NCBI GenBank assembly: GCA_036785375.1
Contig: JAWMAR010001358.1
Span: forward strand, 62,001 to 126,000
Reading direction: 5' to 3'
Length of the DNA: 64,000 bases
From: Leucoraja ocellata
Lineage: Eukaryota
Part shown: positions 8,401 through 47,400 of the stretch, piece after piece
Layout: each line of letters begins with the position of its first letter
Numbering within the stretch: position 1 is the stretch's first letter
Made by a program: the position numbers and the translations under genes
Notes under the pieces: generated by a model
Databases searched by the model: none
Seen by the model: only the letters and a program-made list of their open reading frames with translations
What the model was told of the DNA's origin: nothing

Positions 8401-11400
8401 AAAGGAGGTGGGTGGCATTGTTAACCAAGGACGGAATTAGTGAAGAGGTGAGTTATGATATAGATGCAGTGAATTGTTATGTGGAATCAGAGGAGTGTAA
8501 ATAAAGGATAGCAGGTAAAGGCAGACTGGTGGGGGTGGTCTATAGCCCCCCAATGTGTTGCCTCATAATAGGTAGAAGTATAAATGGCATGTCAGAAGGG
8601 AACAGCAATTAACACAAGCAATTTTAATCTGCATATTAATTGGATTTATCAAACAATCAATTGCACCAGGTCTGTTTTTAGAGCAACAGTGTATATTATA
8701 CTCTGGAACAGGCTATTTTAGAGTTTGTCATGTGCAATGAGGTAGGATTAATGAGAGAGTTTGTAGTAATGTTTCTATGGGAGAAGTGATCCTATGAGAG
8801 AAATAAATATATATTGTTTGAGGGTGAATACCTTGGGTCCAACTCTAGTGTCCTCAACTTAAAGGCAATTACAAAGGTATGGAGAAAGAGCTATCTAAAA
8901 TATATTGGGGGTGAAAAGCAAAGGTGAGCAGTGGTAGATAGTTCATAATGCTCACCGGCAATTCATCCAAACCAGAAAGAGGGATTCAATTGGAAAGATG
9001 GCAAAAGATTAAATAAAAAATTAAAGCAAACAATAATAAAAGTTATTGGACTGGGAATAATTCAGGAAAAGCTGTTAATATGGAGGACAAAATGATTAAG
9101 TGTAAATTGACATGATATCAAAACAAGCAGCAAGACATATAGATATATAAAGATGAAGAGGATGGTTTAGATAAGTGTGGAATTCCTTAAGGGAGCGATT
9201 TGGGAATCAATAGCAGGAGCAAAGACTAGGCAGATAACTTAAGTGGAGGAGTACAGAGGAGATTCATCAGAATTATTTCTAGGATGAAGCTTTTCAGCAA
9301 CAAGGAGAGTGTAGAAAGGCTGAGTATGTTTTCTGTGGCATGGAGGGGATAAGGGGACATCGAATTGAGGTACACATATGGTGAAAAGTGAAGAGGGAGA
9401 TTGAAACCTGGAACCTGCCCAAGGAGATGGAAGAGGCAAGTTCTCTCAACATTTAACAATATTTAAATGAGGATGTGAAACAGCATGGCATAGAACGGCA
9501 GGCGGCCGAAAGGTAAAATTTAGTACATGGGGATTTGTAGGGTCTGCTTTTGTCCTTGTCAGTACATGGCCGACATGATGACCTTCCAGCATAACTGGTC
9601 AGCTGAGACAGGAAAGTTGTTTGCCTGAAATTGCTGAATTCATTGTTGAGAGCTGAAGGCTGTCTGATGGAACAAAATACTTTCCCTCGGGCTTTTGTTG
9701 TGATTTGGTTGAACAATGCAAGAGATGAAATGCAGGTCTCAGTAGAACTAGGAGGAGGAATTAAAGTAACATGGAAACCAGTGTGAATGGGTGATCGATG
9801 GTCAGCATGGTGGGCTGAAGGACCTGTTTCCATGCTGCATCTCTAAGCTCTAACATGAAACAGGAAGTTCAAGATCACCCCTGAAGACTAAAAGCAAGCA
9901 TTCTTCAATGCAGTTAACTGATCTGTGTTTGCTTTCTCCGCTGTGGAGAACAGAAGAGAGCACAATAAATTGTATGTGCAAATGAATTGAAATGCTGATT
10001 AATTGGGAAAATGTCCAAGATTTGGAACAGTGGGAAGGTGTTGCATCTCTTACGGTTGCATGGGAAGGGGAGTGACTGTTCATGGAGATAACAGAATGAA
10101 CCAAGGAGTTAAGGGGAAATAACAATTCAGAATACTGAAAAGGTTGGGGAAAGAAGGAGTGCTGACTGCCAGCTTCTTGTTGAAAGTGGTGGCAATAACA
10201 GAGTATGATCCATAGTATGTGGGGCTGGTGAGGTGGAAGATGAGGATGGAGAGAACTCCTGTTTTGCAGGTATGCATCGGTAGAGAAATCCATTCCTTGG
10301 GGATCTCGGTGCAGCAGGGGTTGCTCAAGGAATATACCATAGGAGATGATCTGGTGTTAGTGGTTGAGCGAAAAACAGCGATTTTTAGTGAATCGAAGAA
10401 AATCCCTACAACAATGTTTCTAATAAAATAGAATTTCTGGATTTCAGAGCCAACACAAAAAAGGGAACAATATTTCCACCATCAAAAAAATATCCCCACT
10501 CACAATAGTTTCCATCTTGTAAGCTAGGGGCACAAAATAAACTAGAGAATTTTTGTTCTTGATTATTATTGAGTATTGGTATTGGACGAAATGACCGCAT
10601 GTTTAAACAACAAGTTTGAAAACGAAACAGTTAACCAAAGGAGGTCTGAGAAGGTGAGAACTGTACTTCTAAAAACATACATCAATGAGTGACCTCCAGA
10701 AAGAGCAGGAAATTTTAACAAAACAATTTAATATGATATAGAAGTATGGGAACTGGCAAAAATATAGTTGTTTTCAATATATTATTATTCTTTAAATTAA
10801 AATCTTACAAAATGGAAAATATATTTTTGGAAGGAAAGCAAGGTCAAACTTTATACAAATTTGGTGTTAGATAGATTGTGTGTTTTTTCCACCCCAATAA
10901 CTCTCATGAAACGTCATGATAGTGCAGCAGATTATTTCAGATGATAAAAAATGCAGAATTTAATGCTTGGGGACATGAGCAACTGAGTATCTTGCCCCAT
11001 ACTCCATGCCTTCTAACATTAAACATTAACTAGTAGCCTTATAATATTGAAGAAATTGGTTCTCATTTCAGACAGAATCACTCATACACGTCACATGAAT
11101 CTTGTGTAGGGCTTCAAGCAAGCTACTGTGCCAAGCACTTCTTTCAATTGCAATAAATCCTTCATAGATTTAGAAAACAATTACAGGCAAAGGACATGCT
11201 GATCCAAATATCAAGACTCCAAGTTCCCAGCCTAATTTATCGCCGCCACTTAATGCACAAGTTGCAGTTTTACACATCGGCTTTTAACACCTTTTCAAGC
11301 ATTGCATTTTTTTTTGCATTAACTTCCTAGCATTTATATTATTAATTATAAATGCATCTCAAAACAATGCAAGGGAGAACCCAGTTCCAAAGATAGCTCA

Positions 11401-17400: not shown

Positions 17401-20400
17401 ACGCAACTAAAGGGTCCAACCCAAAATGAGTGATGAACATCAAAAAATCTAGCTGATTTGAAAACATGATAGATGAGATTACAGAAAACTAATAGTTACT
17501 TTGTATTAATTGTGGTAATTGACCAGGAGGGATACTAGTGACCCCAGGTGTGGCTGAGAGGGAGTCCAGAAACCCGAGTGGCAAGAGCCTTGCAAAACAC
17601 TACGTCACAGGTCAAGTGACTTCTATAAATTGTCCCTGGTGTGTAAGAAAGAACCAGCGTATGGGTGATCTCTGGTCAGCGTGGACTTGGTAGGCCGAAG
17701 GGCCTGTTCCCACATTGTTTCTCTAAACTAAACATTTGTCCCACTGTGTCGTAATCAAGCTTCATTCTCCACTCCATCAAATGATATTTAGATTTCTCAC
17801 ATCATCCACCTATGCAGCCTCTCAAAAAGTGAATCACCGGGATTCGTCCAGTGATGCAATCTCAATCAAAATACAAACTGCTGAAGGAATTCAGTGGTCA
17901 ACCTGACCTATTGTGTTCCTTCAGCAGTTAGTTTTTTGCTCAAAGTTCCGGCACCTGCAGCCGCTTGTGTCTCCTTGGTCTTTCACCATTTGGAAGACGT
18001 ACAACTCCAGTTCCTTTCCATTCTTTCAGTTTGAAGAAAGGTCTCGACCCGAAATGTCACACATTACTTCTCTCAAGAGATGCTGCCTGTCCCACTGATA
18101 TACTCCAGCATTGTGTCTACCTCCAGTTACTTTCACCTCTTTGCACAATATCTCTCCAATGTTTGTGCACACATTAAAAACTAACGTCCAAAATTATTAT
18201 CCCACCACTGATGGGCGATAGTAGAAAGCCCTGAAGTTTAAGATGTAAAGTTATCTGGTACATTAAACTTCGCTTAACTAATAAAAGGCAGAGAAGCAGA
18301 ATATTTAGTGTTATCCAAATTACATATTAGTACAGCTGACAATGAAGAACATGAAGAGAGACACAAAAAGCTGGAGTAACTCAGCAGGACAAGCAACATC
18401 TCTGGAGAGAAGGAATGGGTGACATTTTGGGTCGAGACCCATCTTCAGAAGAACGTCACCCTTTCCTTCTCTCCAGAGATGCTGCCTGTCCCACTCAGTT
18501 ACTCCAGCTTTTTGTGTCTGTCTTCGGTTTAAACCAGCATCTGCAGTTCCTTTTTACACAATGAAGAATATAAAATATTCACAGCTATTTTCAATATCAT
18601 CTCTATACTTATAAAAATCTCATCTTGTATGTGGATTTGTGTGTGTATAATCATATCTTCTCGAAAAAACGACACGGTAACGGTAAAATTTTAACACATT
18701 CCGGTAGACATTTTTCTCGTAGTCCAAAAATCACCTTATCTGAAAATTTAATGCTTTATTTCTCGAGTTATTAGTGAAAATGTTCAAAAATCTGACAAAA
18801 CTTAGAATTTAAAATGACTGTCTTTCGCTTTTGATGTCACAATGGGTCTGCGTGCCTTCTCCCTCGCGCTGCAAGTGATGTCACCCCCCAACCCTCCCTC
18901 CTCCCCGTTATTGAAAAGACGCGGCTGGGGATGAAGTCGGGCCCTGGACTGAAAACCAAAGATCATAGCTGATGACTGCGGTGGCCCAACTTGCGGTCCT
19001 TTGGTCGACGCTCGCCCGCCCACTCGCCGCCTCACTCGGGGTCCTCGTGTTGACGCATGGTGGGGAGGTTGCTGCTGCTCTCTGCCTCTGCCCCGTGCCC
19101 TCTGCACCACCCTCCCTCTCCCGCTGTGCCTGTGAGTTGGGGGCTATGCATGAGTGGATAGGGAGGGGGATGGGGTAAATGAAGTAAATGAATAATATTA
19201 ATATATCAAGGGGGGTGGTTAGTGTGTGTGTGTGTGTGTGTGTGGGGGGGGGTGGTTAGTGTGTGTGTGATGCCGCAGGCCACCTCCCCCGCGGCCGCTT
19301 GTTGATGGGATGGGACCCAAAGGGTCCCACTAGGTCTCGTAGTATTTAAAAATGAAAATCTGAATTTGTGAAAAGTTCTACTTTCTACTGGGCCAGTGTT
19401 AATAATATCTAAATATCAAATTCCAAATTACATTATTATGAGGTACAATTAGACCAAATGATTTATGGCTACAAGAGAATATTACTTCGACTACTTTTAA
19501 CATAGATATCAGAAGTCTATTATGTGATAGTCAACCTCATGGCAGCCATAAAAATGCAAGATATTTATGAACTTAACTGACCAGAGTGAAATAAAAGACA
19601 TAGCAACTTCAACCACTGTGCAACACTTCCATGAAATCCTGAATCCATGTTTGCAATACAAACCTTGGTCACTGAATACAAGTGATTTACAAAATAAAAT
19701 CTTGCCTCATGTTCAAATCCCCATGGTTGACATATTATGAAAATTAAAGAGCTGTTTCTCCCTGGATAATGAAAGTTTACCTCTCCAGGAAATGGATGAA
19801 ACCCAGAAAATAAGGCACCAAAAAATAAATATTTCAATTTGACATAGAGATCAATCCATCACATTTAGAAAATTCCATTCTGAAATTTTAAATAGTCTCA
19901 AAGAAAAAATAAATACAATATGTAGAATCAGTGACAGAGAACCGTCAGTGATGACAACTACACAGTAATTATTGTGAATCAATAACTGCCTCATATAGAT
20001 AATTAGTTGGAATCAGGGACTTCTGTTGTGTGAATAAATGAGGAAAGCTGGTTTGAAAGTAGAGGGGGTTTAGGAGAGATTTAATAAAAATACTTAAAAT
20101 TATGAGCAGATTTGAAGGGGAGACACAAATAGGATAGATAACTTGGGGGTAGAGGAAGGTAGAGAAAAAAGGGAATTTGTTTTTAAGAATGTAAATTTGT
20201 GATCTGGAATATATTACTTTATAAGGACAATGGAGAAAGTGTCAACATTCAACAGCATTGAATTGAATACTCAATAGGGGAAAAATACAGAGCTATGTGG
20301 GGGGAGGGGGGAGAAACATAGGAGAACTAGATTTATTTTCCAAAATAGCCTGCCTAATAGCCAAATGCCCTCTATAATTTGTGATTTAAACTCATGCACA

Positions 20401-23400
20401 GTAGAATGCCATAGGAACACGGTGGACAGCAATCAGAGTTTGCACATCACATCTATCAAAAATAATGTGTTTTGTTCCTCACTGTATTATAGAAAGCACT
20501 GTGGCTCTGCTAGCCAATAAGAAGCAGAGCCTACTGTAAGATTAAATCAGCTTAAATAACATTACAACTAGTTATAAGACTTTTGTAAAATTCATGGTCC
20601 TTTTTATTATGGTCCGTGTTTCTAAAGATTATTCCAAATACCTTAATTCATTGCTTTAGCATGCAAACAATGTTGTTTCAAAAATTCCAACATTGTTTAT
20701 GCCATCTAAGTTTACTCTATCAGGATTTACTTGAAGAGTTGGAATCAGTTTAACCGGAATGCACAATTGAAAGAATACAGGAAGTTTGACAATTTTAGTA
20801 TGACAAAGTATAAACTCCTTGCAAATTGTTGTTTCAGAGAAGTTGCTTTAGAATTTGTCGATACTGCTACCCCTGCTTTGAAGCTCAGAAAGCATGTATA
20901 CAAGTAATGCAATTGCCCCACAGAATACTTCATACATATGCCTTCACATACTGAGTGGAAGCATAGGCTTCATAGCTTCGTCTCTAGGTATGGGCAGCAA
21001 GTGGTTGGAGACCTGCTGCTTAACAACTCGAGTAACTCAGATTCAATCCTGATCTCTAGTGCCATCTGCTTGGAGTTTGAACATCTGCCCTATCGCATTT
21101 ATGGCAGATTCAGCAAATCTTGGGCAGGTGGGGGTCGGCCTGGTAGGCCTGCCGGGTAGCAGCACCTCGGACTCGTGAGCTACTGCTGATCCGACACTTA
21201 TTGCACTTCCAAGGGCAGCTTATTAACTGCCCATGCAAGAAATGTAGGTTTTGCTGTAAAATAAATTTATATTTAATATTTGTTTTACTTAAGCTCCCAG
21301 CAGTCCACAGTGCATTATAGACACGGGAAGGATATAATTAGTGGGTCAGAGGTGTATTGGTGTAAAATTATTACGCAACTTCTGTTGGTCGGGTAAAACG
21401 GATAATATAGCAAGGCTCTGGAACCAAGGGTGCCGGAAAATCGGGGGTGCACCTGTACTGGCTGAAATTGTCAATATAAATGACATACACTAGTCATTAT
21501 TGATGGGGTGCAGCTGTCAAAATTGCTTGGTTGGCAGCATTCTCAGGGATCTCAGTCCAGTTAATAGGTTAATCAGGTGTGAAATGAGGGCTGCACTATT
21601 GGACATGCCATCCCTTAGATGCATTATTAAACCGAGGTTCAACTAGCCTCTCTGGTACTATTTAGAACAAAGAATCTATCCTTGGGTCCTGGAGAGAATT
21701 GCTCAGTTCACAGTTATTAATATATATTTGGTGAATATCACACCAGTTTGAGGAAATTTGTGATAGTTGGCAGCTGCATTCCAATATTACAGGAATGAAA
21801 ACACTTCAAATGAGCAGCTTGCTCATAAACTGTAAAGCACTTTGAACCATTCTGAAAGCGACTAGAATGGCACTATTGAAATCAATGTTTTTCTTTTTCT
21901 TTACGTGACTATAATTTCAAATACCAGATGGCATAGATTTAAACTGATTGGCATGATGGTTTTTTTAAAATAAAAAAGCTTCTGGTTGGGCGCATATAAT
22001 ATGAAGGATTCAAAAGCTGCATTAAAATACCCATCTACTCACAAGACAAAACTAATGGCAAACATCCTCCACTGCACTTGGATCAATGGTCACTTGTTCT
22101 TCAGCTGAAAAACCCACCCAGATTTCTTAATTTAAATTCCTGCGTGTTGGGGCAGTAACTTTTTGCTGATCTCTCTATATTTGAGATTTCATTTCGAATA
22201 GCTATATCAATTGTTCTTGGAAGATATTTCTGATACCCTTAAAATATATTAATGCACTTGTTGTAACATTCTGTACTATAGCGATCTTGAATTCATTATT
22301 TACATGCAGCAAAGTGGAAGTGCTGGATTTTACCACAATTAAATGTAATAGATGCTTACTTAACACAGATCATTGGGTATGATAACATCATTTCAGGAGC
22401 AGGTTAATTGATACAAGACAGACCTCAAATGAAATGGGAAGAATTTGTATAAAATAATTTATATACATTAACCTTTATATTGATTGATTTTAAATGAAAA
22501 TTGCAGGTTTAGACAAAAATGACATAATTTCTTGTCAAGGATTATACAATCACTTAACATTTTTATTATTGAATTATAAGCCTCAAGAGAAGCATTCTGC
22601 ACAGGTTTTATCATCAAAAGCAATTTTGACCGTAAAAATTGAAAAATTTATGCAATATGAAAGAGTGCCCTCTATCAAGAAAGACAGCGCCTTATATTCC
22701 ACATGGAAAGCTTACAACCCAATGGTATGAATATTGAATTCTCCAGTATTAAATAATACCCCACCTACCACATTTCCCTTTCCAGTTCCTCCACACCCCA
22801 CTGTGCACCCATTTTTTCCACTATCCCACCCCAGTCGCTCTACTCCTTCCCCCTCCTTCGCACACTCATCTCCCATATCAGAGTCCCTAATTTTTCTTTT
22901 ATCCCCCCCCCCCCCCCTTTCCGTTCCCCTTCTACCCAAATACCACCTTCTGGCTTTGCATTTCATTCATCCTCCTCTCCTTATCCAACACCCTTTTGTT
23001 TTATTATTTGGCAAAAGGCATATCAACCTTCCTCTTCACCTGTATCCATCTATCCCTTGCCAGGCTTTGTACCATCCCCACCGGTTTTCCAGCTCCCCAC
23101 CCCCCCCCCCCCCCACCCCTCACAGAGATGCTGCCTGACTTGAGTTCCTCCAGAACTTTGTGTTTTGTCCAAGATTCCAACATCAGCAGTTGCCTGTGCC
23201 TCCTCCTTGCACAAAGTGGGTCTGACAACTCCCACTGAAGGTTGGGATTGCAGATCCAGATGGCGACTCAGTTCTCTGCCCCGCCCAACTATAATTACTA
23301 TGTCGGATTGTCACAGTACATAGTAAATATGGTCAAAGTCTTCAACTCTTTGAAGTATAATAGTCAATACACAAATAAAAAGAGTGTCTATCTCATTTAG

Positions 23401-26400
23401 GGATTACTGACTATCAGCAGAGATAGATCTGTTGGATGCATTTTCTGAGCCAGGCGACTCAGAATACTATTTCATAGGATATTTTGAGATATGGATGAAC
23501 TACATTGCTCCTTCAAAATGAAGGCATTTCCATCTTTATGTTAATCAAGTCTGTAAAACTTCTCCAAACATTTACCTTCTCCACCTAAATTAGGTGTGAT
23601 TAAATTCTGCCTTAAAGTATTCATTACAAACTGCTGATTCATGATAATGAACTGGAGTTTGGAATAGCGAGAAATCATAGAATTAAAAGAGTAGCAGAAC
23701 TGTTAATTCCGGAGAAGGCCTTCTGCATTCAATTGCAATTAAAATTATTGTAGTTTTACTAAAATTCTGTAGAAAAAAAAACTGTATACATTTCCTGCAA
23801 GCTTGAATCTTAAAGTTGATACAATTGTAATACTTATGTCAGTTTGCACAGAAGATGTGAAGAGCTGCCAAGAAACATTATTTTTAGAAACTCGAAGCCC
23901 GTCGCAAGACAAAGAGAAATTTCTTCACACAGTGTGGTGAATATTTGGGATTCTCCAGTGCGGAGGGCAGTGGAGGCTCAGTTGACTGAGTTTATTCAAG
24001 ATATTTGAGAAATCAAAGGATACAGGGACAGTGCAGGAAAATAGTGATGAAATAGAAGATTAGACACAACCTTGGTGAATAGCAGAGAAGGCTGGAAGGG
24101 CCAAATGGCCTACTCCTGTTTCTTATGTTCTTAGGTGCCAATCTACAGGGAAAAAAGGGGAATTGTTCAACCCATGTTACCTCCACTCCAGAACTAATAC
24201 CACAACTTTAACTATTGAACTGTGGTACGCAGATGATGTTTGCACACACATAATCCTAAGCAGAGATCCAAAATAATATTGACTTATTTGTTGATGCATA
24301 CCAGAAAAATTACCTTTCTAAGTTCTAAGATATGCAAGCATTAAATGACTAACAAGTTGTGAAATAAATACTTTCTGCAGTTGCTTAAAACTGGAAGTAG
24401 AAATTTATACTTATAGAAAAGAAAATTGTGAGATTTTTTTTCCTAACACGAAAGGTTTCTAATACTACATTTCCTTTAACATGTATTACCTGAGTGCAGG
24501 TGACATATCTGGAGCTTGTTCTAGTGGCCTGGTGTAGGAAGTCGGAAACCAACCTCTCCTGTTCAGAAGGAATAAAAATATTGTAATTAAACCCTTTTAA
24601 ATGAACAAACATCTTCAAGAACAGCATTTTTTTTTGTATTTACAACATTCCAAGTCTGAGCTAGTCTTAAAATTTGACCTGCACTAAATCTTCACATTTA
24701 TTTTTCACTGAATGTGGATCTAAAATTAGCTGTCATTGTTAAAATAGTTCAATGGATTTAGAGGAAGAATTTACTAAATTTCTAGCTTCCTGTGCAAGAG
24801 GATCCTTCAAATAGACTATGAAGACCATCAATGAAGACCATTCAATATCTTTTGACATGACAAAAAGATTTGTAGTTATATAACAGGAATATGACTTTCA
24901 CCTAAGTCTACTGGACATCATGCATAATAAATTGCACTCTCTCTCATTAAGCACAAGAAGTTATAAATTATTCATGCACTTTCTGTTCATATTTCACCAC
25001 AGTACATTTAATGACCAAGTTGATATAAACACAAACACTGTTGAGGAGCCTATTGCTTAAGTCTTACAGTGAGGGCTTTACATTGTTTTCTAACTTCTGC
25101 TGGATGTTTAGTTTAGAGATACTGCATGGAAACAGGCTCTTGGGTCAACCGAATTCACGTCGACTATCATTTACCTGTTCACACTAGTTCTATGTTACCC
25201 ACCTTTTTCCAACAACTCCTTGCACACCAGGGGCAATTTACAGAGGCAAATTACCTACAAAATCAGTCTGAAGAAGGGTCCTGACCTGAAACGTCACCTA
25301 TCCATGTTCTCCATAGATGCTGCCTGACCCACTGAGTTACTTCAGCATTTGTCTTTTATCGTTATCCAGCATCTGCAGTTCTTTATGTCTAACCTATAAT
25401 TCTGTATGCCTTTCTCCCCCACCCCCCTCCCCCCGAGGAAATCCACACGGTCACAGGGAGAATATACAAACTCCACACAGATAGTACCCAATGTCTGAAT
25501 CGAACCTGGGTCCCTGGTGCTTTAGAGCAGTAACCCTACACTGCGCCGCCATAACGTTACAGGAACATTTCCTAATGACAGTTCAAATGGAAAAACTCCA
25601 ATTGTATCTTTATAGCCTGTGAAATCTTAAGTTAACATATTAATGCAGATCAACCTTTTCTTGATTTATAATACATAAAAAATTGTAAACAAATTATTAA
25701 ACTGTATGCTTTGTGAACTACTCCACTAAAACACCTTGAACAACTGAAAAGCTAAATGAAAATATAGCAGCTGCAAATCTGAAATAAAAGCAGAAAAATG
25801 CTGGAAATATTCAGTAGCTCATGCAGCATCCATGGAGAAAGAAACAGTTAACATTTTAGATTGATGACCTTTCATTAGGAACAGGAAGAAATGGAAAGCA
25901 TGTTATAAATTGTATGAAACCGAAAGACGAGAAGAGGGAAAAAAAGTTTTATGTAACCCATAGACCACCAAACTGAATAATGAAAAGGTAAGTGCTGCCA
26001 TTTGAGAGAGGGTGGTGAACATTAGTTAGTTATGGTTACACAAAAAAGCTGGAGAAACTCAGCGGGTGCAGCAGCATCTATGGAGCGAAGGAAATAGGCA
26101 ACGTTTCGGGCCGAAACCCTTCTTCAGACCCTTATCTGCAGTTCCCTCTTAAACAGTTAGTTATGGTTGATCAGTCCAGATTTAAGAAGGACGTGAAGGA
26201 TAACAAAGGAAAGAAAAAATGTTGAATTGTGTAGATAATACAGCAGTTTCTACTTGAATGTGGATCAGACAGGATGTGTGGAGAGAGAAAAAAAAGTTAA
26301 CAATTCATAGAGATACTTTCATGTATATTTATTAAGAAAAAATTGTCACTCTATTGACCAAGCAAATTAGAATAATTTAACTCAGACACCAAATTGGCAG

Positions 26401-29400
26401 GGAATCTTGGATATTACTAGTTTGCTCCTACAGATGCCTTGCTACACAAATTCACAAGACTGAATTGAAAAAAATCTCCATGAGTAGATTAAAATCAAAC
26501 ATTGCTATACTAGTTTTAAATAAAGAAATTTTATTTTGTATAAATAAACATCATGAACCCCTTTCCACGGTTTTACATTTATGGTCCTAACCATCCAATA
26601 TAGCAATTATTCATTCAAACCTATCAACATCAAAAAAACAGATTATGTTTATTGGAGCTTGAAACATCTGTTATGTGCAAACTGGCCACCATGTTTCTCA
26701 CTTTAGAATAGTTACCATCTAAAGGTTAACTGTAAAGTATTAAAGATAACTTGTAACCACAATAAATGCAAGTCTTTCGTTTTTTTAATCTTGGTAATAC
26801 ATGAATAAGAGTTGCTATGAAACAGGCCATTTTACATGAACCTAAGCTTCCAGAAAGATTAAACAATACAATCCTCACTTTTATCCTATTTGTACAATGT
26901 TGATTTTTGCTTTAGTCCAGAATTAGTCACAATAGGACTACATTTTCACCATGATCAAGAAACAATAGCAATTTTGGTACAAACTGCATCTCCAGTCAAT
27001 TTAGGTTCTGTTGGGATTGTGTTTAGGGAGAAGGATCTCTCGTGTCTCAAGTCCTACATGCCTGAATGGAAATTTAAGATACAGGAAAGGTCCAACTGTA
27101 TTGGCTATAAACTCTCTCTGTTAGGGGGCCTATCTGTTGGGGGTGAGAATGGGATTGAAGTTGATAAAATGTTCTTTGCACAGTGTCAGTTCAAAAGAGA
27201 GATGGCAGGTTACAAAATGCAGTCAAGCTCATTGAGGAGTGAATCAATGTCTGTTTAGTGTCGAAACGAGGAAATGCAGATGCTGGCTTACACAAAAGGA
27301 CACAGTGCTGGAGTAATTTCGCAGGTCAGGCAGCATCTCTGGAGAATGTGGATGTAAGACATTTCAAGTCAGGACCCTTCCTCAGACAGAGGAAGAGTTC
27401 CTACCCAAAAAGCCACCTATCCACGTTCTCCCGAGATGCTGCTTGACCTGCTGAGTTACCCCAGCAGTTCGTAGCTAACTGTTGAATGTTCTTCTACTAT
27501 ATTTTTAATGCATTACCAATATAATAATTCTTATGTTGTAATCATTTAAGGCAAATGAGAACTCACAGTTTGGTTATATCATGTTCTCCATACAGCCAGC
27601 CATCCTTTTCTTCTGGTATTAGAAGTGTTAGTACATCCCCTTCTGAAAAGCTCAACATATTCTTGTTATTTCCTGCAGTGTGTGGAAAAATGCTTTTCAC
27701 TTTTGGCCTTTGAACCATGTTCAGTCCAGTTGCAACAGAAATGGATCTTGATAGACCGATATCCTCTGTAGAAAAAGTACATTAAATTCATTACTGCAAG
27801 ATCTTTTTAATACCGATATCATATCATTGCAACAAATTCAATTATTCAACTATAATTCAATTCAGGGCAATTACAAACTGTAACATAACAAGTTAGTTAA
27901 AAGCGGCAGAATGAATTTATGTAACATGTTCACTTGGCTTGAAATTAAAAGTTTTATAATTTTTTTTTAAAGAAAATGAAAAGTAGGAATTCCCAATCCT
28001 TAAGTTATACCTTAAACTTTTCTGTGCAATTACTTTGTAGAATGAAACAAATAAGCCAAATTTCATTTCAGATAGTTCAAGAGTTTTAAGATGTCTTAGT
28101 AAACAGTATGGTATACTTTAATTTCATTTTCCAGCAGTTTTTATCTTCTATGTTCGTCAACATATACACTAGAAGTCACTGAGTTAACTTCCTGCAAATG
28201 AAATCCACTGTTCCAAAATCATAAAGAAACTAACTGTGATTCCATCCAGCAGAATATTAACATCTGCAGTTATCCAAAACTGCAAGATTTACTTTAAAAA
28301 ACAAATGTTAAGCAAATGATCACGCCCGAGAGGTAATTTTGCTTCACTTAATACCAATTGAAATAATCTTGTATGATGTAATGTGTAGGAAGGAACTGCA
28401 GATGCTGGTTTATACCATAGACACAAAAAGCAGGAGTAACTCAACCGGTTAGGCAGCATCTCTGCAGAAAAGGAATAGGTGACCTTTAAGGGTCAGAATG
28501 TCGGAATGTTTGAAAATAAGTTTCCTGCTGTCACTACAGCTTTTTGTGTCAATTTTCTAGTATTGATGTAATACAGGTAAATTGTAAAATAAACTCAACA
28601 ATCATTATGCAGATTGAACCAGCACATATTCAATCCCTCAAGATCAACAAATCTCTCTGATAATTAGAGATTGGTAATCAATGGTTGATGTACAGGTTTG
28701 CATGGAAATGCACAGATCACATTAATAATGGATCAAGTAGACAAGCTTGCTTAGATTCTACTGGTACTAAGGGGGTATTTATTAGATTCCACTCCTTACC
28801 TGTGGATTCGGTATTTCTCTCAATCGAGGCTATGCGCTGTGCATTTGGGTGGTTGAACATATCTGGCAGAGGACTTTTCTGAATTCTTCCAGGAGGAGCT
28901 GGTGGTATTTTTATATTGTTCTGTAATGTAGGATCATGTACCTGGAAAACCATTATCATTATTTTCTTGCTTACTTAAAATAGTTTGGAATATCTTCATT
29001 AAAACATTTCTGGTTGGGGCATTTCTTCTACACATGATAAAGAACAAGGGCCTGATAAACATCTTGTTAAAAGATGGGAGCTTGGTCACCTTTACTTAGA
29101 AATTATGCATGTTAAAGTGTTTTTTATTATAGTGACCTGACCATGATAACAAGACCCATCTGTACTACATTAATAACTGGGAATATAAATAATGGTATTA
29201 TTAGAAACTAACAAGAACACGATAATTTAGTATTAATGAGCTAACATCACTCCTTAGGATTAGTGCCTGCCTCATTAGGCTCCAGGATTTGGTTAGAGAA
29301 TAAAGTGTAATTAAATTTAAGGAATCCTTCTATAAAGTTTAATAGTGAGGGGTGAGCATGATCTGTACCACAGAAATACCAGAATGAAAAATAAACAAGA

Positions 29401-32400
29401 CAACAATTTGTTTTGCCAAATGTACACAATCACAAAAATATACTTTTGCCTAAAGAAATTCTCTTCTTCTATTTTCCAATTGGTTTTAAAATCCTACAGA
29501 ATTTCATAGCAACTAAAGTTTCACTGGAATTTGTTTTAAACTGTGCAACTAATTATTTGAAAATCAATCTTATTTTCTATCTATAACCCCACTGTCTATT
29601 TTGCAGGTCTTGAATTGTAAAGCACCATCACACCATTGTGATTTGTAGCATTAACTAGAAATGTTTGGTCAAATATTTATTTTGAACTAAGAATTTCCCA
29701 TGAGAATTTGACATGTTATTGAAAGTAACCAGCCCTAATTACAGGAAAAAGTTATTAACTAGCTATGTATGCCTGAAGATTTGATTGTTTTGAACAAGCA
29801 AAATAAAATGTTTAAAGATCCTACGGATAAAGACATTTATTTCAAGTTCTGTATGGTGGATGGAGTTTTCTACTCGGAATTACTCAGTGTTCAGAGAATT
29901 CAGAAGCTATTTTTAACATCATCCAAAACAGAGCTTTGAATCGCATTTGGAAATCTGGAAATTAAGTCTTCCTTAAGCTCTGTCCCAACAATTGTATCTT
30001 TACACAATTCTAAGACGTTAAACAAATAAAGATAATAACTTTTCCATGATTATTACATTATTTGCAAGTGGAGAAAATAATGTTTTACTCATTTCATGCA
30101 ATCGGAATAAAATAATCACCTTCACCAAAAGAGAAAAGATAATTATGATTCCCCTGTTAATATCTATCCTAGAAAGTACCTGTGGGGATACTGGGCAAGA
30201 ACAGGACTAGCTAGTCTATGAAGCTCACTTAGCTCACTCGCTTACAACCACTTTTTATCATAATGCATGAAGAACTCAAAAAGATGGGAAAGCATGATTT
30301 TTCTTCCACAAAACCTTACCTTCAACTTTTCTCAGTGTTCGGCTATAATGTATTCAATAACAACGTCTAACTTATTTCTGTGGCAGATGTTAAGCTAACT
30401 AGTTTGTAGTTTAGACTACAAAGGACATGAATAAGCAATGTTTCAGGTCAGGACCCTTCTTCAGCCTTCTTTGAAATTTCCTTTTTCCTGTCTTTGTCTC
30501 ATTTTGAACTAGCCAAATGGAACATAAAACCCTTTGAGCCTGTCCTACCATTACACATTCACACCTAATTCTAAAGGATAAAAATAAAATATAGAAAATA
30601 TACTGTTATTTGGGATTTTATAATTACATGTATAACAAAGATATTTTAATAAACATTTCCCTCCTCTCTTGCCAAAGTCAGCTACTCACAGAGTATCTTC
30701 CTATCATTGGAGAAGGTTGAGGAGTTTTGGATGGATATGATGGGAAGCTGCTATCATCTTCATTCAAGAAGTCCGGCACGTTTGTGGCATCCAAGCACTT
30801 ATCCTGCCAAATATTTATTTTGGCACGAAGAAGTCCATTGGCCTAAGTGAAAACATTATATAATGGTCATTAGATGGAAATTATCATTTCATTTTCATAA
30901 AAGTACCTCAGAGTACAAGGAAAGGATGGGTTAGTTTATAATTAGTGTAGTGCCACATTCTACCCCTATGCATTTTAATAATTACCATTTCTTAGCCTGC
31001 GCTTCACGGCATAAACTCCGTTCCCTTGTCACCATTTCCATCCTTAGTTATTGTCTGAAGCCGAACCAGATTGCTGGCATATTAGCATTTCGTGTTTGAT
31101 GCAAAATGATATCTCAACCACGCACTTGCTTGAATACCAGACTAATTTCCACCTCCATAATGTTTGGACTCCGATTCTATCATAGGTCATCTATTGCTGA
31201 AAATCTCACTTTGTTAGTTTAGTTTAGAAGTAGCATGGAAGCAGGCCCTTCGGCTGACCGAGACCATGCAGACAACCAATTACCCAATCAGACTAGTTCT
31301 ACGTTATCCCACTTTTTTCATCCACTACCTATACATTAAGGAGTATTTTACAGTTCAGTTTATTTTATCGTCAAATGTACAGTGTAAAGCTTTTGTTGTG
31401 TGCCAATTAACCTACAAACTCGCATGTCTTTGGCTTGTGGAAAAAAACTGGAGCACCCGGAGGAAACGCACGCAGTCACAAAGTCCAAACTCCATACAGA
31501 CATGACTCGAGGACAGGATTGAACCCATGTCTCTGGCGCTGTGATGCAGCAGCTCTATCGGGTATGTTACTGTGCCACCCACAATTCTAGACTTACTTCA
31601 AATGCTCTCATGGTTAGCTACCGATCTTATCAGCTACCGATCTTTTTCTCACAGAGTCTGTGGAATTCTCTGCCTCAGAAGGCGGTGGAGGCAGGTTCTC
31701 TGGATGCTTTCCAGAGCTAGATAAGGCTCTTAAAAATAGCGGAGTTAGGAGATATGGAGAAAAGGTAGGAACGGGGTACTGATTGGGGATGATCAGCCAT
31801 GATCATATTGAATGGCGGTGCTGGCTCGAAGAGCCGAATGGCCTACTCCTGCACCTATCGCAGAATCTCATCTCCCTGGAAATGACATTTGCAACCACAT
31901 ATATTGGCTCTCAATCCAACAATAGTGCTGAAGAAAACATGAATTATGGCTATTTTCAGTTCCTTACAGTAATAATGATTATAATTTTGAACATAATTTT
32001 AATGCTTTCCAATACATATTAACACAGAAAAATTCAATTGTTTCACAATTATTTATATACAGACCTTTTCATGGTAATTGCTTAGGTCTTGGGAAAAAAT
32101 GCAATGCTTGTCCACTAGGAAGCAGAACCGTCTTTTTTCTTCAAGTAATGCCTCTTTGCAGCCATCAGTGATGAACCTCTGAATGTCGCTTTCCCTCGTA
32201 CTGATAGTTGCTAGAAACTGGAAGGAAAAGATCCAAATGTCAATCTGTTCCTTCATAAAATATATAGCAATTTCTACCAGATCACAATTATTCCTTCCTG
32301 GTTTCTCCCAAAATCATGTTCGTAGATTTATTGCCACATTTATTATATCAGAACTACTTTTAATGCAAGTTTATTTGTTTCTAAAACAGTACTCTGAATA

Positions 32401-35400: not shown

Positions 35401-38400
35401 AATGTAAATAACCTCATTTTGAACAGCAGGGAGATACTCCTCAATCAGTGAATTTTAAAAGAAATTTCTAGTCATTAAATAGCTGTTATAGCCAAGGCTT
35501 CCGTTTATAAATTACCTGTCATATTTCCCTAAACTGAAACATTTAGGAATCATAAGTGATTTTGAAATGTAATCACATCATTGATTACATTTCAAAAGTT
35601 CAAGCCCCTAGGATTTTCTGAAAATGGTGTAAAGGACATCACATGAATGCTTGCTTTTTTTTTCTTCCACAGTGCATCATGTCAAACTTACTCAAAATAA
35701 ATTGCATCTGCTACCTGTTTGCCCATTTCACTGTCAAAGTTCATTTGAGCTCTGATTTATCCTCAGGAGTTACTGTCTTCCTAAGTTTTCCATCACACAT
35801 GCAGGTACTATCACAACATTTAAGAAACATTTGGACAGATACATCGATAGGATAGGTTTAGAAGCTTATTGGCCAAACACAGATGGGTGAGAACAGTGTA
35901 GATGGGGCATGTTGGTTGGCTTGGGTGAGTTGGACTGAAGGGCCTGTTTCCACGCTGTATGACTCTATGACATACTTTAAATTAGTGTTCTTTCTACCTA
36001 TCCAGGTCATTTCTGATGGAATATAGTAACACATCTATTGATTAGCTCTAGCAATGGCAGGTTTGTCACTGAGAGGAGAATTAAGGTCAAATAGTTCTGT
36101 ATTATGTAGATTTCAGAAGAATGAGAGATTTCATTGAAACTTTCTAAATTCTTTAAAGGCCTGGCTCATGAACATGAAACATCCCATCTACTTTTCTCAA
36201 TGATTGTTGCTTTGTCTGAAAATTTCCAATATTTCTAATTATATCAGATTTGCAGTATTTAGCTTTATGCTCAACTCAGAAAGCTGCTTATCAACATAGG
36301 AGAGTGGCCAGAAAAGTGATTACAAAGAAAAGACTGCTTTGATTACAATAAATAATTGCAATACTATAGTGTCAGATGGCTTGTGGTTTCAGGTAGCAAA
36401 CCTATTGTTATTTGCACCACAGATGACTAATGTGAGAATTCCATTGTACCACTACAACACAATTCATATCCGCCTCACATGACAGAATTTTATTCATCCA
36501 GTGTCTGAGAAACACCGGTTCATTCTTCCATTTTCACCATTCACAAGAAATGTATTTTAGTTTTAGTTTAAATCTCAAACTAGTCTGATACCATCCTTAC
36601 TTGATCCCCATACATTTTCCAACATTTTGGTCATCACATACTTCTTTACGTCGGGCATACTTATTTTCAATGTTCATACTGTTGCCCTGACAGAAAATCA
36701 CATGCAATTCATAATTAAAGATTGTACAATGGCAAAGTGCATCGTAGAAATAAACCAGTATTAGTCATGTACGAAAGGAGCAAGACAGAGGAAAGTTAAT
36801 ACATTAGACTAAATAATCGCGGATGAAGATGGGAGAGCATTTCTTGTTAGACATTCAATGATGGACTTAACACCTACCTCCATTTCTTTATTTTCATATT
36901 TGTAAGCATTTTTCGTTCCTTGACTTTTCCTTCGAAGTTTCTTGAGTTCTGCTTGAGACTTTTCCAGGGAATCTAATTTAGTTCTGTGTTCTGTTTGGTA
37001 CTTTTTAAGAGTTGCCTGCAAGAAAATTATTTCAACATATTAATCTGCATGCCTTGAATGGCCAATTTATTATAATATCTTGCAGGGCATTGGCAGAGAA
37101 TTAAAAACTGCTGAAGTTCTTACAGGGATTCTAACCTCAATGCTGGCCTAATTCATCCAACTTAAATTCAGATAAGCACTTAGAGTCATAGAGAGATACA
37201 GTGTGGAAACAGGCCTCTTTGGCCCAACTTGCCCACACCAGCCACACTAGTCCCACCTGCCAGCATTTGGTCCATATACTTCCAAACATGTCCTATTCAT
37301 GTACCTGTCTAACTGCGTCTTAAATGTTGGGATAGTCTCTTCCATTTATTTCAACTTCAGACAGTTATTGCTGATCCTGGCTGTTGTTACCCTTTGTTTT
37401 TCTTATAAAATGATCACATCTGAGAATTAAGTTGTGTAGCACTCCAATAAACAGATGTATCTTCCTTTTTTAAAGAGGATATTCTGAGATAGGTACATGG
37501 ATTGAAGGTTTATATTATTAAAGTATGTTTTAGACTGTTTTTCTGTCATAGTTGTAGTAATAGGAATAGACATAGGAAAAATGAATATGCTCTCTAGCCC
37601 TTTTGTCTATTTAGCCATTCATTAAGATCATGGCTGACCCACCACTTTCCTCCATATCCTTGCTGCCCATGATACCCTGACAACAACAAAACAGGAATCA
37701 CATTTTCCTGAGAGTTCTAAGGGCAAGCTAGGGAACTGCATGTTCAGAGGTCAGCTCCACGTCCAATTGGAAAAAACAAGGACTTATTAGGGACATTGCC
37801 TTGTGCATAGGAAATAACATGTCACAAATTTGATTGTCAAGGTCCCACGTGGTAGACAGGTCTGAAAGGTTAGCTCACTTGAGATCCAGAACGAGTTGGC
37901 CTAGGATCAAGATCAATTGGGAAAGTGGGCAAAGAAAGGGCATTTAACTTGAACGTGCAAAATCATGCATTTGGGAATTTAAATTCGGGCAAACTTACGC
38001 AATGGCAGGGCCCTGTGAAACGTTGTAGGCAGAGACACCCGGGGCACAACTACATGGTTCCCTGAAAGCCTGGGATTGTTTTCCCTGGAGTAAAGGAAGT
38101 GAGGGAGGAGGGGGTGCTTATAGAAGTTTATAAATTCATGAGAGGCATAAATAAGCTGGATGGCCAGTCTCCAGGGATAAGCGAGCCGAATACTAAAGCC
38201 ATTGGTTTAAGATGAGAGGGGAAAGATTAACAGGGAACCTGACAGGCAGGTTTTTCACATGAACGGTGGTGTGTGTATGGAATGAACTGCAAGAGGAAGT
38301 TGCAGAGGTGGTATGTTTATAATGTTTAAAAAGACATTTGGACAGTTTTATGGACAGGAAAGGTTTAGAGGTATTTGCAGGCAAGCCAGACTAGCTCAGG

Positions 38401-41400
38401 TAGGCACTTTGATCAGCTTGGACAGGCTTGCCTGAAGGTCCCATTTCCAAGCTGTATAATTCCATGACTGACAAAATGTTTAGTTGCGCAAGATCAAGTG
38501 TTCACAATGAGTTTGATATTAATTATGTAAACGGTTCCAATTGAATAGATTAGGTACTTACATTCATGTACTTCATATCTTGATCCGTTTTTCTCTCCAA
38601 TTCACCGATTATGTCTTTATGAAATTTCCTAAACTTCAAGATGAAAAAGATATTTCTTAAAGATATAACAAGAAACTACAACAACAGAAGAAAGAAAATT
38701 ACTTAAATAATGCCCAAATATACCTAGGCCTAGAAATTCTAATGCACTGAATTTAGATGAGAGATGGGGAGAGACGATGGGGATCAACAGTGAACAGGCA
38801 AGAGGCTGGTGCAAGTTGTCATCTTCATGGTAAAGGTGAAGAATATGAGGCGATTGGATTGTGAGGCCAGGATTTGAGAGGTCAGCATTGTGGTTGGAGG
38901 GGATGTCAAAAATATGAAAGATAAGTAGCGATGGATCCTCTTGGGATATTGTTTTCCATATTGCACCAAATGTAAAGAGAATGATCAGACAAGGTCCAAA
39001 ACCAATTTTCAATTATAATATGCTATAACTATGCTATGTAATTGAGTTCATGAATTTCTTCCTCTTGAAGATGAATTTATCTAAAAAATTGATTTGGGAT
39101 CCTTTAAATAAGTGCTGATTCTGTGCATGCTCAAAAACAGTTTTGCCTTCCACTCAAGAATCACTAATATTTTATATATCTTTTTTTAATGAAAGGGAAG
39201 GTAAGCATTCTGATCTCAAGTTTTCAAAATAATTTTGCAACTAGACAAAAAGCAATATTTTAGGTTTAACTTGACTCAAATGCAATAATTAAAAAAATTC
39301 TAACGAATAACTTGCAACAACTAAACAACCTTTTCAATTTAGGTCCGAGATCATTAATCAAGAGTTAAGAGTCAAGAGCATGGAGGGAAACAGAATGGAC
39401 ACCATTTATGAAAATTCAACCAGATCATGACTAAAAGAGCTGGACTGAAGCTTGACATCCTCTGAGTGACTCGCCTCCTGATATCCCAACACCTTCCACT
39501 ATATTTAAGGCAAAAGTCAGAGGCACAATATAATGCCCTGTACTTGCCTGGTTGAATGCAACTCTAATAACTTTAAAGAAGCTTGATACCACCGAAGACA
39601 AAGCTGTCAACTTGATAAGCACCTCATCCACCATCTTAACTATTCATTTCCACCACTGGCACACAGGACTGCAGTGTATACCATCAGCACCTGCCAAATC
39701 TATGACATCACCCCCAACGCAAGGGCAGCTAGTTCATAGGAACAACACTACCTTCAATTTCCCTAGGTCTAAGTTCTGGAACTTCCTATCAAATACCACA
39801 ATCGTAAATCTTCATTTCAGAGATCGCAGAGGCTCAGGCATTGATGGGCAATTAGAAAGGTCATGTTTCCTTTCGGCATGTGAAAAAATTGGAGAGGAGT
39901 TGAGGAAATTTTTTTTTACAGTGGTGGTGGTCTGGTACTTGCTGTTAAGATACTTGAAGCGTTGTAACCAAGAGTGGTAGAGCTGGGAAGAACATTTTAT
40001 CTAAATGTTGTATCATTTTGTGCCAGAATTCAATTTGTATTTTAATGTTATCCTTCAGGTTTATAATCAGGTTTATAATCTTGCATAAGATTACAAAGGA
40101 AAAACAATTTCAAACTATTTTGAAAAGCAGTGTTTAACATACATACATTATCTTCCATTTCTAAGTTGAGTTTCTTGTGAGCGTTTGAAATATCCATTAA
40201 GACTTGGCCTATGGGAGCAAATAGAAAATAGATTTACAAAGCTGTTTCATTTATATTTAGAAAAGTACTTGTTTATGATTTCTCCATTGTAAATGTTACT
40301 GAATTCCATGTCCGTCCTATTTTATTTTCTCAATGCTCATCTTACCACATTTCGGGTCTCAACCTGAAATGTCACCTATTCATGTTCTCTGGAGATGCTG
40401 CCCGATTCGCTGAGTTACTACAGAACTTTGTGAACTTTTGTGTATTAACCAGTATCTGCAGTTCCTTATTTCCACAGTTTATGCTTCCTCCAGCTAAGAT
40501 TGAAATCAGAATAGTCATCAATATTGAACTACCTGGTCTACCTAAATATTTTAATGTTAGGGTTTAAAAAAGAAAATCATGCTTTGAAATAGCAAATTTA
40601 TTCCTCAAGTTTCATGTTTGGTAAACCTGAACTTTGTCTTCGAATCTTGAGCTAAACAGAAAAGTGTGGGGGAAAAAAATCTTAAATAGCTACTGTTTTG
40701 TGTTTGGGAATTCATAATTGCATGATTCATATTTGCTCCTTGGCTACACGTGGTATTATATCTACAATACTGGTTCGAAAATGATGGACTTCTTCCAAAG
40801 TCTTCCACAGCAAGCGCAAAACCAGGAGCAATCAAAAAGCAAATAAGATGCAGAAATCTGAAATAAAAATAAAATTTGCTGAAAATACTCAGAGGAATTG
40901 ATTATTTATGAAGGAAGGTTCTGACTGGAGTAGTTGACCTGAAATGTTAACTCACCCCACAGACGCTGCCTGACCTCCTTTTTTTTATTTCAGGCTTCTG
41001 CAAGTTCTTAAAAATATTAAAACATGCTTATTTTCTCACTTTGCCAGTTCTGATGAAAGATTAATGACCTAAAATGTTAGCTTTGATCATCGATCGATCC
41101 CTTTGCCTCACCAGGCACTGCCTGATTCGCTGAGTTCCTCTTGCAGTTTATTTTAGAAGCTAAACAATTTTCTTCAGTTTGACCAGCTCCTTAACCTCCA
41201 GATAGGATAAAAATAAATAATCTTGCCAGGTGCCAACTTTAATATGTAGAATTTTGAATATTAAACTTAAGATCCTAAAGGGCCTGACCCACTGTACAAG
41301 GTAATTCAAGAGCTCTCACGAGTTAAAAAAAAATCAAACTCGTGGTAAGTACGTAGAATGTACGTAGGGGGTAAGTCGGAGCTCGGGACGTCTCCTAGCG

Positions 41401-44400: not shown

Positions 44401-47400
44401 ACAACTTCATCGAATGGGCATATTAACTATGCGTCACCTCTTGCGAGTTTATACGTAGGTGATCAAGCTGATTAGTAAAACCTTAAAGGTCACAGAAATA
44501 GCAACACTATACTAAACAAACAAGTTAATCAAGATTCAGAAATAAGTGGAGGTGAGCCTTGCATGGAAAAAATGTCAAGACAATACAATGCCTTTTAGCT
44601 ATTACCGGCTCCTTGCCATTTACTGATAACAGATTTTGACCAAATATTTGGATGGATGGATGAAGTAATGAATACAGAAAAAGTAATTACCCCTCAACTG
44701 CAAGATTTAATTAATCAATTCAAAATAAAAGGTAGCTTGAAGGGTCCCAATGCAAAATGTCACATATCCATTCCCTCCACAGATGATGCCTGATCCGCTG
44801 AGTTACTCCAGTACTTTGTGGTTTGCTCAAGATACCAGCTTCTGCAGTTCCTAGTGCCTCCAAAGCTAATGTCACCTTGCTACGAGTGTGTGGTCCAATC
44901 AGCTCCCAAAACCATAAAATCAGCCACACAGCATAGAAACAGGCCCTTTGGCCCATTATGTCCATGCTGACCTAGTTGGGGTTCTGGTTCAGTCCCATTT
45001 GTCCACATTTGTTCCATACTCCTCTTAACCCTTCCTATCTATATATCTGTCTAAATGTCTTTTGAAAGACATAAACATATGAAATAAATCATTAATTGAC
45101 TAATCCTGGAACCCACCAGAATCTGGAGATGCACCTTTACCAGTAAGCAATACCACACAAGATTCAATAGTAGTGAAAAGAACTAGGCATGATAGTCATA
45201 TAATTTTTCTACGATTAAATTCAGAAATCTGAATTTATCAGTTAAAATAAAATGAAAACTATTGAAAAATAGACAGTGGTTATATTGTCACATTTATTGT
45301 TCAAGAAGGAACTGCAGATGCCGGAAGATCGAAGGTACACAAAAATACTGGAGAAACTCAGCGGGTGCAGCAGCATCTATGGAGCGAAGGAAATAGGCGA
45401 CGTTTCGGGCCGAAACCCTACTTCTTCAGACATTTATTGTTGTGTTCTCGATAGTAATGAACACATTACTAGATTCAAGTTGTTTCAGATACATCTGAGA
45501 TGCTAACGTAGTCTCAAGAGGGGAGTCAAAATTTATAGTAAGTTACCTACAACAAACTTTGCATTAGGTGATTTGAAATGGCATTGTTATCCAATCTGGA
45601 ATGAGTTTTCCAGCCAAGCATGTTGGCAAAATTAGCTGTGTGTTTAAGAAAAAGTAGTTCAAAAAACTAATTCATTCATCCATCCATCCATCTTCTGTTG
45701 AGAAAATTGATATTCTGTGCCTTCCTATGTAAATGCACTCAATATTTTCAAACATAACTCAAGCTTTCTTTTAAAATTTGAGATACAAATACATTTTCCA
45801 ATTTAATTTCTCTGTTCTATTCAGAGATTTAGTCATACTCACACACACAGGAACTCCTTTACATGTGCTCTCTCTTATAAAGCACTGTTTCTGAAGTGAG
45901 ATAACATAATTAATACTAAAAGTTTCTGTGGAATGGGGAATAAATGGAGCTATAAGCACATTTATATTTTCAGAATCTTCATTTTTTGGCAGGATCTAGA
46001 GAGTAATCCAACACACTTCACAAAAGTGAACCTTTAAAGTATGCATACATTTTTAATTAAAAATAAAACAGTAAATGCTGGAAACAATTAGCAGGTTAAG
46101 CAGCAACTATGGAAAGAGAAGAGAGTTAACTGTCAGGTCAAAGTTTCTTCAACAGAACTGAAGCAGTCTTTGATCCGAAACATTACATTTTCCACAGTTG
46201 CTGCCAGACCCAAGTGTTTCTATCACTTTCTTTTTCTTCAAGATTTCCAATTACTTAACATCTTAAGTTTGAGTGAATGCAGTCATATGTTGTTCTAAGC
46301 TGCCAAAAGGTTCAACAGGAAAGTGAAACTGACCTACCGTTTTCTGGTCAGACTTTGGTTCTAATTTTGAAGTATATTCTGACATTAGCATTTTCTTTTA
46401 TTTGAATGTGATTGAGGTATTTCTTTTTAAATGTAAAGCTTGAAATCAAATTGTTGCTTATTAATTCCATCCATGACAGTTTTTTTCCCCCCATGAACAT
46501 TTTTAAAATATTACAATGGAATATATGGAATTTGATTATCTTTGTCTGAAAGCAAATTGTGGATTTGGAAGATAAATATGTATGCCATTACAAACCCGGC
46601 AATCTATTTGAGAAGCTCAAATGACGCAAAATCAGTTCATTAAGTCCATATGAAACACAAGATTAAATCACTGTCATACTTCAAGCTACTATCATTTGAG
46701 TTTTGCTACCCTTTTTTCATCATTTTCCTTAAAGTACCATTGACGATCAGTGTCTGTTTTGTCCTTGCTGTGTAATGAAACTCATGCAAGATTAATAAAT
46801 GAGAAAGTCCTCGGCAGTGGATTAGTTGGCAATTCTATGACCAGCATGTGTGTCACAGTAATAAGTAGTCAATTGCATTCAAGGCCGAGGAAGCACTATG
46901 CATCAATACAAAAGGAAAAGTGGTTTGTGGTAAAAATCAGTTGCAATTGGGAGAAGAAAATGCCATTGTTTAGTGAATCATAAAATTGTAAAACAAGAAA
47001 AAACCCATTCCCGAGCAAGTCTTCCAAATAGATAATATTAGCTCACTGTGAACGAATCCCATTTACACAGAGCACATTATAACTTTGCAATCAGAGAGGA
47101 CATTAATAAAACATGCATCACTAAATCATTCTGAGTACCTCGTCTCCGTCTTTCAACTTCACATCCTATTCCTTCATCTCTCATGCACTACCTTAGTTTC
47201 TATCTGAAACCCTCTAAATTACATCTCAACATTGTGGCAGTGGGTATCCCATTTCAACCTTTTTCTGTCAAGTAACAATTCTATTTGGTTCTCATGATGC
47301 CTTTCCAAAACTAAATACACTAGCACCCAACAAAGCTCCAGAATAAATGCTTTATATTTCAAATTAATTTAGTGGTTGCCTTCCAGAAATATTTTCTGAT

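Follow-up and report, generated by a model that had tools for sequence, protein, structure and literature searches.

A recent, polymorphic Penelope-like stub carrying a minimal hammerhead motif, most likely idle, in an intron of the skate IRTKS gene

Small self-cleaving motifs of the hammerhead type have been described in several transposon-related and intronic settings. The available portion of PMC4209133 defines a class of minimal hammerhead ribozymes (min-HHRs) in the pseudo-LTRs (pLTRs) of metazoan Penelope-like elements (PLEs), including forms with an extra nucleotide before stem II; cleavage by a single minimal hammerhead was undetectable there, and dimers and trimers cleaved at a low level. 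In the lizard Anolis carolinensis, the hammerhead of the PLE Poseidon_Ac (PAc) cut only with the PLE protein, in vitro, according to the accessible part of PMC11167929; insertion was independent of cleavage, the RNA-seq described in that part included no reads ending at the site, and the protein required the first 172 nt of its ORF. Amniote intronic hammerheads, in the RECK intron and others, are canonical motifs conserved across species, as presented in the available text of PMC6155905. Tandem retrozymes have also been tied to PLEs, and were found to be under-represented in Xenopus introns, a result that concerns tandem arrays only (bioRxiv 10.64898/2026.07.22.740005, available portion).

The motif considered here lies in a 64,000-nucleotide stretch of skate DNA, referred to as the window. 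Its host gene is BAIAP2L1 (IRTKS), transcribed from the minus strand, as established by domain and structure matches and an RNA-type contig. The exon at 27566-27769 (minus), which encodes the first part of the SH3 domain, matches Pfam SH3_9 and the IRTKS SH3 structure (PDB 2KXC) at E 3.8e-23, against just 2.8e-15 for IRSp53 (3RNJ). The covered part of the following exon (24490-24557, minus) encodes the end of the domain and was delimited by its translation, the contig join and an AG acceptor. Domain matches placed IMD exons at 36869-37024 and 32065-32214 (minus), upstream of the SH3 exons. The RNA-type contig X18/1 links 27566 to 24557 with zero differences, so that the intron spans 24558-27565 (3,008 bp) and the motif is sense; this spliced junction defines the intron and is silent on the insertion allele. 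The 2KXC match and the contig thus bear out an earlier sequence-only reading, which had placed a hammerhead in the sense strand of IRTKS pre-mRNA between the two SH3 exons. The labels 'intron 10' and 'exon 10' agree with human numbering. Exons 3-11 were located by motif, exons 3-5 being among those obtained from the upstream motif search; the search of 80 kb upstream located neither exon 1 nor exon 2, and tblastn with paralogue exons yielded no upstream exons.

On the minus strand, positions 26096..26131 read as a minimal type-I hammerhead core, and the letters of the sequence-only reading are confirmed. The 5' strand of stem I (GGGU, 26131-26128) is followed by C3-A9 (CUGAAGA, 26127-26121) and by an additional A at 26120, between A9 and G10.1, as had been claimed. 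Stem II (26119-26116 paired with 26111-26108) comprises 4 bp, three G-C and one U.G, with the G10.1-C11.1 pair formed by G26119 and C26108. G12-A14 (26107-26105), the palindrome ACGU (26104-26101), U17 (26100) and the 3' strand of stem I (26099-26096) complete the motif, with a predicted cut at 26100/26099. All core nucleotides are therefore in place, and the min-HHR pattern CUGANGA ... GAAA ... UH is present. Stem II is capped by UUCG, as the same reading stated, and its closing pair is U.G, not C-G. Because the extra-stable UUCG tetraloop is closed by C-G, this loop does not belong to that kind. The palindrome had been given as AACGUU; it is palindromic and without a loop, but its productive register is the 4-bp ACGU (15.2-16.2), since the longer register pairs A14 and U17, which must stay free. 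U17 is a weaker cleavage base than C17. The four pairs of stem I are U.G, G-C, G-C and G.U, two of them thus wobble pairs.

In type-I topology, intact core, extra nucleotide between 9 and 10.1, G10.1-C11.1 pair and loopless palindrome at 15.2-16.2, the skate motif resembles the min-HHRs as set out in the available portion of PMC4209133. It differs in the length of stem II, 4 bp here versus 7-8 bp in the schistosome motifs of that source, and in the native stem I of its family, which has just 2 bp. Within a set of 73 family copies, stem II pairing (G-C, G.U, U-A or U.G) is retained in most, and the first stem-I pair switches between U-A and U.G among subfamilies (44/73 and 19/73).

Scoring against Rfam, which had been proposed as a check, gave no family match at the gathering threshold over the whole window; at E <= 10 over 25950-26250 the hammerhead models (type I, HH9, HH10 and others) were likewise absent, and only four unrelated weak matches were returned. 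This silence is expected for a motif without helix III. A loose core pattern occurs 10 times in the window, versus 5.75 +/- 2.57 expected, and is not enriched. The 3.44-Gb assembly (G000), on the other hand, contains the exact 32-nt core 25,169 times and the reversed control 0 times, which identifies the motif as a repeat and not a chance match. The assembly comprises two haplotypes, so that many loci are counted twice in this figure. A C17 variant of the core accounts for a further 5,761 matches. More than 25,000 identical cores, counted over two haplotypes, exceed the 4,000-9,000 given for coelacanth and Xenopus in the available portion of PMC4209133, with which the family shares its occurrence as mostly single dispersed copies within truncated PLEs, thousands per genome. 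Cartilaginous fish are not named among the hosts in that portion. Literature searches at the level of main texts found no paper on a PLE hammerhead from this group; supplements may list fish motifs.

The motif is carried by an insertion of 117 bp (26038-26154) flanked by exact 14-bp direct repeats, the two copies of the target-site duplication (26024..26037 and 26155..26168), of which the other haplotype holds a single copy. The last 4 bases of 26024..26037 are common to the 3' end of the element (microhomology). Most of the insertion is the 92-bp 3' end of a 5'-truncated pLTR (26038..26129, minus), identified by its match to a parent element with which 95 of 96 bases are identical over 26034-26129. 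The truncation point lies 2 nt upstream of C3. Beyond it come four nucleotides of junction filler (26130..26133, minus), which supply pairs 3 and 4 of stem I, and then the 21-bp 'tail' end of the PLE in inverted orientation (26134..26154, plus), matching the parent tail in reverse at 21 of 22 bases over 26134-26155. The inverted piece that the sequence-only reading had recognised at the 5' junction is thus genuine. Its claim that this junction supplies a 4-bp stem I holds for the length; two of the pairs are G.U and the extra letters come from the filler, not from the inverted tail. The filler and the next 2 bases reproduce the element's own AAGGGU, found 12 nt downstream, and this hexamer occurs in 179 of the 641 copies with GGGU upstream, where two free letters would give 1 in 16. 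Such an excess, combined with the repetition of the element's own sequence, makes it likely that the filler is templated, and the repeats of AAGGGU, as read in these junction sequences, suggest template slippage during 5' joining. The same junction filler was seen at the loci L025, L027, L028 and L032.

The parent lies near 8.67 Mb of G000:C1 (L044/L045, 8.664-8.673 Mb) as 3,985-bp tandem units whose pLTR carries the identical 32-nt core. Its 578-aa frame matches RVT_1 (E 4.9e-7) and GIY-YIG (E 0.004, a weak match below the curated cut-off), in line with the PLE origin proposed earlier. The two units are 99.9% identical to each other, one of them being frameshifted, and they are probably a source element that is still active. 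Tandem pLTR-ORF-pLTR units, a tail and inverted 5' pieces, the traits of EN+ PLEs, are all present, and family copies occur with the tail, without it, and as head-to-head pairs. The arrangement recalls PAc, as far as the accessible part of PMC11167929 describes it: an ORF with RT and GIY-YIG, tandem units, a pLTR hammerhead, a 'tail' bounded by two 3' end points some 35 nt from each other, and copies that span the predicted cut site. The PAc ORF starts within the hammerhead, whereas in the long frame of the skate parent the first ATG comes some 155 nt after the cut site.

Truncation of this kind is common in the family. Among 44 distinct young copies (46 rows, L001-L020, L047-L126 and the window, less 2 fetched twice), 25, the present one included, have their first base no more than 6 nt upstream of C3, most often at the GU that precedes it; in this count 3 rows with variant native flanks were scored as untruncated, and copies broken inside the core are uncountable. 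The hot spot may mark an RNA 5' end or a stop of the reverse transcriptase. The predicted cut site is included in all 44 copies, consistent with a template of uncut RNA.

The insertion is a young polymorphism and not a conserved feature. The second haplotype (C58), 99.1% identical to the window over 52,761 aligned bases, is precisely empty at this site and has the duplicated sequence once. Empty sites were also recovered in all four public runs examined (4 samples, 2 studies, 2 species labels), in contigs that skip 131 bases and join 26023 to 26155 through 14 shared letters. Among the matches listed, X1, X2 and X6 show empty-site contigs at full flank depth, and the flanks in X1 are identical to the window letter by letter. 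Run X3, possibly not independent of the assembly, carries both alleles: the right junction of the insertion at a depth of 15.8 with zero differences, and the empty allele at 18.9. The two haplotypes also differ in length by about 860 bp and about 300 bp present in C58 only and by 97 bp present in the window only (17533-17541, 41083-41088 and 22368-22464); none of these differences is a young PLE stub.

Nor does the stem I of this copy set it apart. Native copies, with CAGU upstream and a 2-bp stem I, make up 14,620 of the 25,169 cores, and relative to these the suggestion that its stem I is better than in sister copies is correct. The 36-mer with GGGU, as found in the intron, occurs however in 641 equal copies, and 440 copies carry AGGU, in which A-U replaces a G.U and improves the stem; UGGU precedes 278 copies. 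In 7 of 20 loci fetched (10 GGGU and 10 AGGU), stem I reaches 5-8 bp. Judged by these sequences, stem I of the IRTKS-intron copy is better than the native one and far from unique. The notion of an exceptional copy thus gives way to a core found 25,169 times in identical form, here in an insertion that the other haplotype lacks and whose site is empty on alleles in 4/4 runs.

The geometry of the motif bears directly on whether it could cut. Since ACGU has no loop, helix III requires a second copy, and from the junction geometry one copy would contribute the core and stem II of a double hammerhead and the other the strand that is cleaved, making stem I intermolecular as well. The filler-made strand would consequently aid the site of a partner, and its own site only when paired with an identical transcript. 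In computed folds of 48-nt pieces, the homodimer reaches -16.9 kcal/mol versus -7.1 for the native homodimer, about 10 better, but it is 2.3 kcal/mol less favourable than two monomers, and the best non-catalytic dimer is favoured over it by 14.1. On these models the junction improves the homodimer over the native form, and dimer cleavage in vitro would be possible. The ACGU duplex itself is computed at -1.7 kcal/mol, and the AACGUU register at -3.5.

Partners within the gene are poor. Three other sense-strand motifs lie in the window (27385, 30464 and 45429), offering the IRTKS site a stem I of 2, 0 and 2 bp, and the respective heterodimers are computed at +20.9, +12.2 and +10.5 kcal/mol relative to monomers. 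The nearest possible partner, in the same intron, is an older decayed sister with a broken palindrome (27358..27385, minus); the best in the window, 19 kb upstream, has C17 and 3 additional nt ahead of stem II (45399..45429, minus). The modelled share of monomers in which stems I and II are paired while the core stays open falls from 5.8e-3 for a 52-nt piece to 6.8e-6 for 112 nt and 2.8e-6 for 192 nt. In the 52-nt piece it is 4-10 times that of native copies, yet below 18 of 20 GGGU/AGGU sisters, and at longer flanks it is no better than in native copies. In a 301-nt context, the junction Gs are predicted to pair with the upstream intron (0.85) and stem II to be displaced (0.71-0.78), and compared with shuffled sequences the fold of the motif is unremarkable (z-scores of -0.47, -0.43 and +0.10). 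These are equilibrium models, with co-transcriptional folding and proteins outside them, and they score the parent's own motif equally poorly; they hence argue against a special advantage of this copy and cannot prove inactivity.

Were sense copies to cut pre-mRNA, they would be expected to be scarcer than antisense copies. This was evaluated in 795,200 bases covering 7 other gene spans, with strands taken from same-strand domain hits and not from annotation. Among 49 motifs with a paired stem II, 41 have an intact palindrome and H17; these intact cores are sense in 26 cases and antisense in 15 (p = 0.12), and this small sample shows no sense depletion. A stem I of at least 3 bp was found in 2 sense and 3 antisense motifs, and of at least 4 bp in 1 and 1, a class too small to judge. 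At a mean spacing of about 31 kb between sense intact cores in gene spans, one inside the IRTKS gene is expected.

In three raw RNA runs that share the X3 species label, 12,039, 9,887 and 10,844 reads were aligned, nearly all from other copies of the family. The PLE family is young and transcribed, so its protein may be present. Read starts or ends do not accumulate at 26099/26100 above threshold, but the exons of the gene were essentially uncovered and the libraries are ill-suited to ribozyme ends; this result was given no weight as evidence. In the single-cell RNA of X22 and X23, family reads are 1.8-3.5 times commoner antisense to the hammerhead (25994-26114 and 25268-25388), a ratio to which library strandedness and internal priming could contribute.

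Taken with its anatomy and age, the locus is very probably a 117-bp stub, recently inserted and still polymorphic, of a Penelope-like retrotransposon present in many copies, and its minimal hammerhead sits most likely as an idle passenger in the IRTKS intron. Target-primed reverse transcription would have begun at the internal start site of the pLTR and halted 2 nt beyond the hammerhead core on its upstream side; the same stop is seen in about half of the young copies. The truncated end would then have been joined to an inverted piece of tail via a short templated filler, which by chance extends stem I. Only an identical transcript from the same allele would give the 4-bp stem I, and because a second identical copy is needed, cleavage before splicing of the 3-kb intron is expected to be negligible. 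The earlier proposal that IRTKS pre-mRNA could be cut co-transcriptionally at 26100/26099 is not supported: a lone copy has no stem III, its partners in the gene are poor, it misfolds in context, and sense copies are not depleted. That the motif plays any regulatory role is hard to credit.

A weaker form of activity deserves comparison with the idle passenger. The insertion allele could be cut in vivo at a low rate, through paired nascent transcripts of the same allele or with aid from the PLE protein, so that IRTKS mRNA would be slightly reduced or truncated. The intact core, the gain of about 10 kcal/mol in the homodimer, protein-assisted cleavage of the anole PLE in vitro (PMC11167929, accessible part) and the fact that the allele is not fixed are all compatible with this. 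Against it stand the 14.1 kcal/mol that favour a non-catalytic dimer, strong competing folds in context and the absence of sense depletion (26 vs 15). The stub, moreover, retains only a small part of the element RNA, and the anole protein depended on the first 172 nt of its ORF, as far as the same partial source goes. Low-rate cutting is thus unlikely, and that it would represent a mildly harmful or neutral new mutation, rather than a regulatory device, carries the same low probability. Far less credible is a domesticated ribozyme that regulates IRTKS in the manner of RECK, separating the IMD from a complete SH3 domain. Its type-I form and its sense position in an intron, here between two SH3 exons, do recall the amniote motifs of PMC6155905 as presented in its available text, which are canonical and conserved across species; the IRTKS motif is minimal, polymorphic and 99% identical to its parent transposon. 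A fixed orthologous site and helices I-III that fold within a monomer, the marks of domesticated hammerheads, are both absent, as are stem III, tertiary-contact loops and an Rfam match. As a conserved feature it is refuted by the empty sites of the second haplotype and of four samples, which carry two species labels, and a sense intact core every 31 kb or so of gene span makes its position unremarkable. An assembly artefact, to which the presence of the insertion in only one of two assembled copies might point, is just as improbable given the perfect 14-bp target duplication and the X3 contig over the right junction (depth 15.8, no differences), even if X3 is possibly not independent of the assembly.

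As found, the idle passenger adds a further copy to a motif already known from transposons and has little significance. Its heterozygosity nevertheless provides an internal control, insertion against empty allele, for whether minimal PLE hammerheads cut host pre-mRNA in vivo. On a broader and very improbable reading, though less so than the domesticated ribozyme and the assembly artefact, 5'-truncation junctions repeatedly rebuild stem I (more than 1,000 copies of at least 4 bp), and a subset of segregating intronic stubs, the IRTKS one among them, is cut in vivo, lowering or truncating host mRNAs in an allele-specific manner. Cutting would proceed via neighbouring nascent transcripts or with the help of the PLE protein, and the stubs would amount to heterozygous ribozyme insertions; if true, thousands of them would form a new source of cis-regulatory variation. 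Literature searches on exon tethering across a cut intron returned nothing directly relevant. L038, L042 and L043, whose stem I has 6-8 bp, are better test cases than the IRTKS-intron copy.

Some further copies were noted in the course of this work. At about 30 places the window holds pLTR stubs from older PLE insertions (for example 6823-6909, 18361-18517, 25266-25350, 53412-53504 and 55701-55789); they belong to several subfamilies and are spread over the gene in either orientation. A junction-made stem I of 6-8 bp is seen in L035, L024 and L029 as well as in L038, L042 and L043, and the hammerhead-ready fold in long context reaches 0.35 in L043 and 0.13 in L038. Non-LTR retrozymes, as described in the available portion of bioRxiv 10.64898/2026.07.22.740005, are likewise non-coding, hammerhead-bearing and PLE-derived, but consist of tandem units with at least two hammerheads, whereas the IRTKS copy is a solo stub with a target duplication. 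Five AGGU-type cores at G000:C48:8432742-8433129 form a short tandem array with 44-bp spacing, possibly a retrozyme-like micro-array that would permit dimers in cis.
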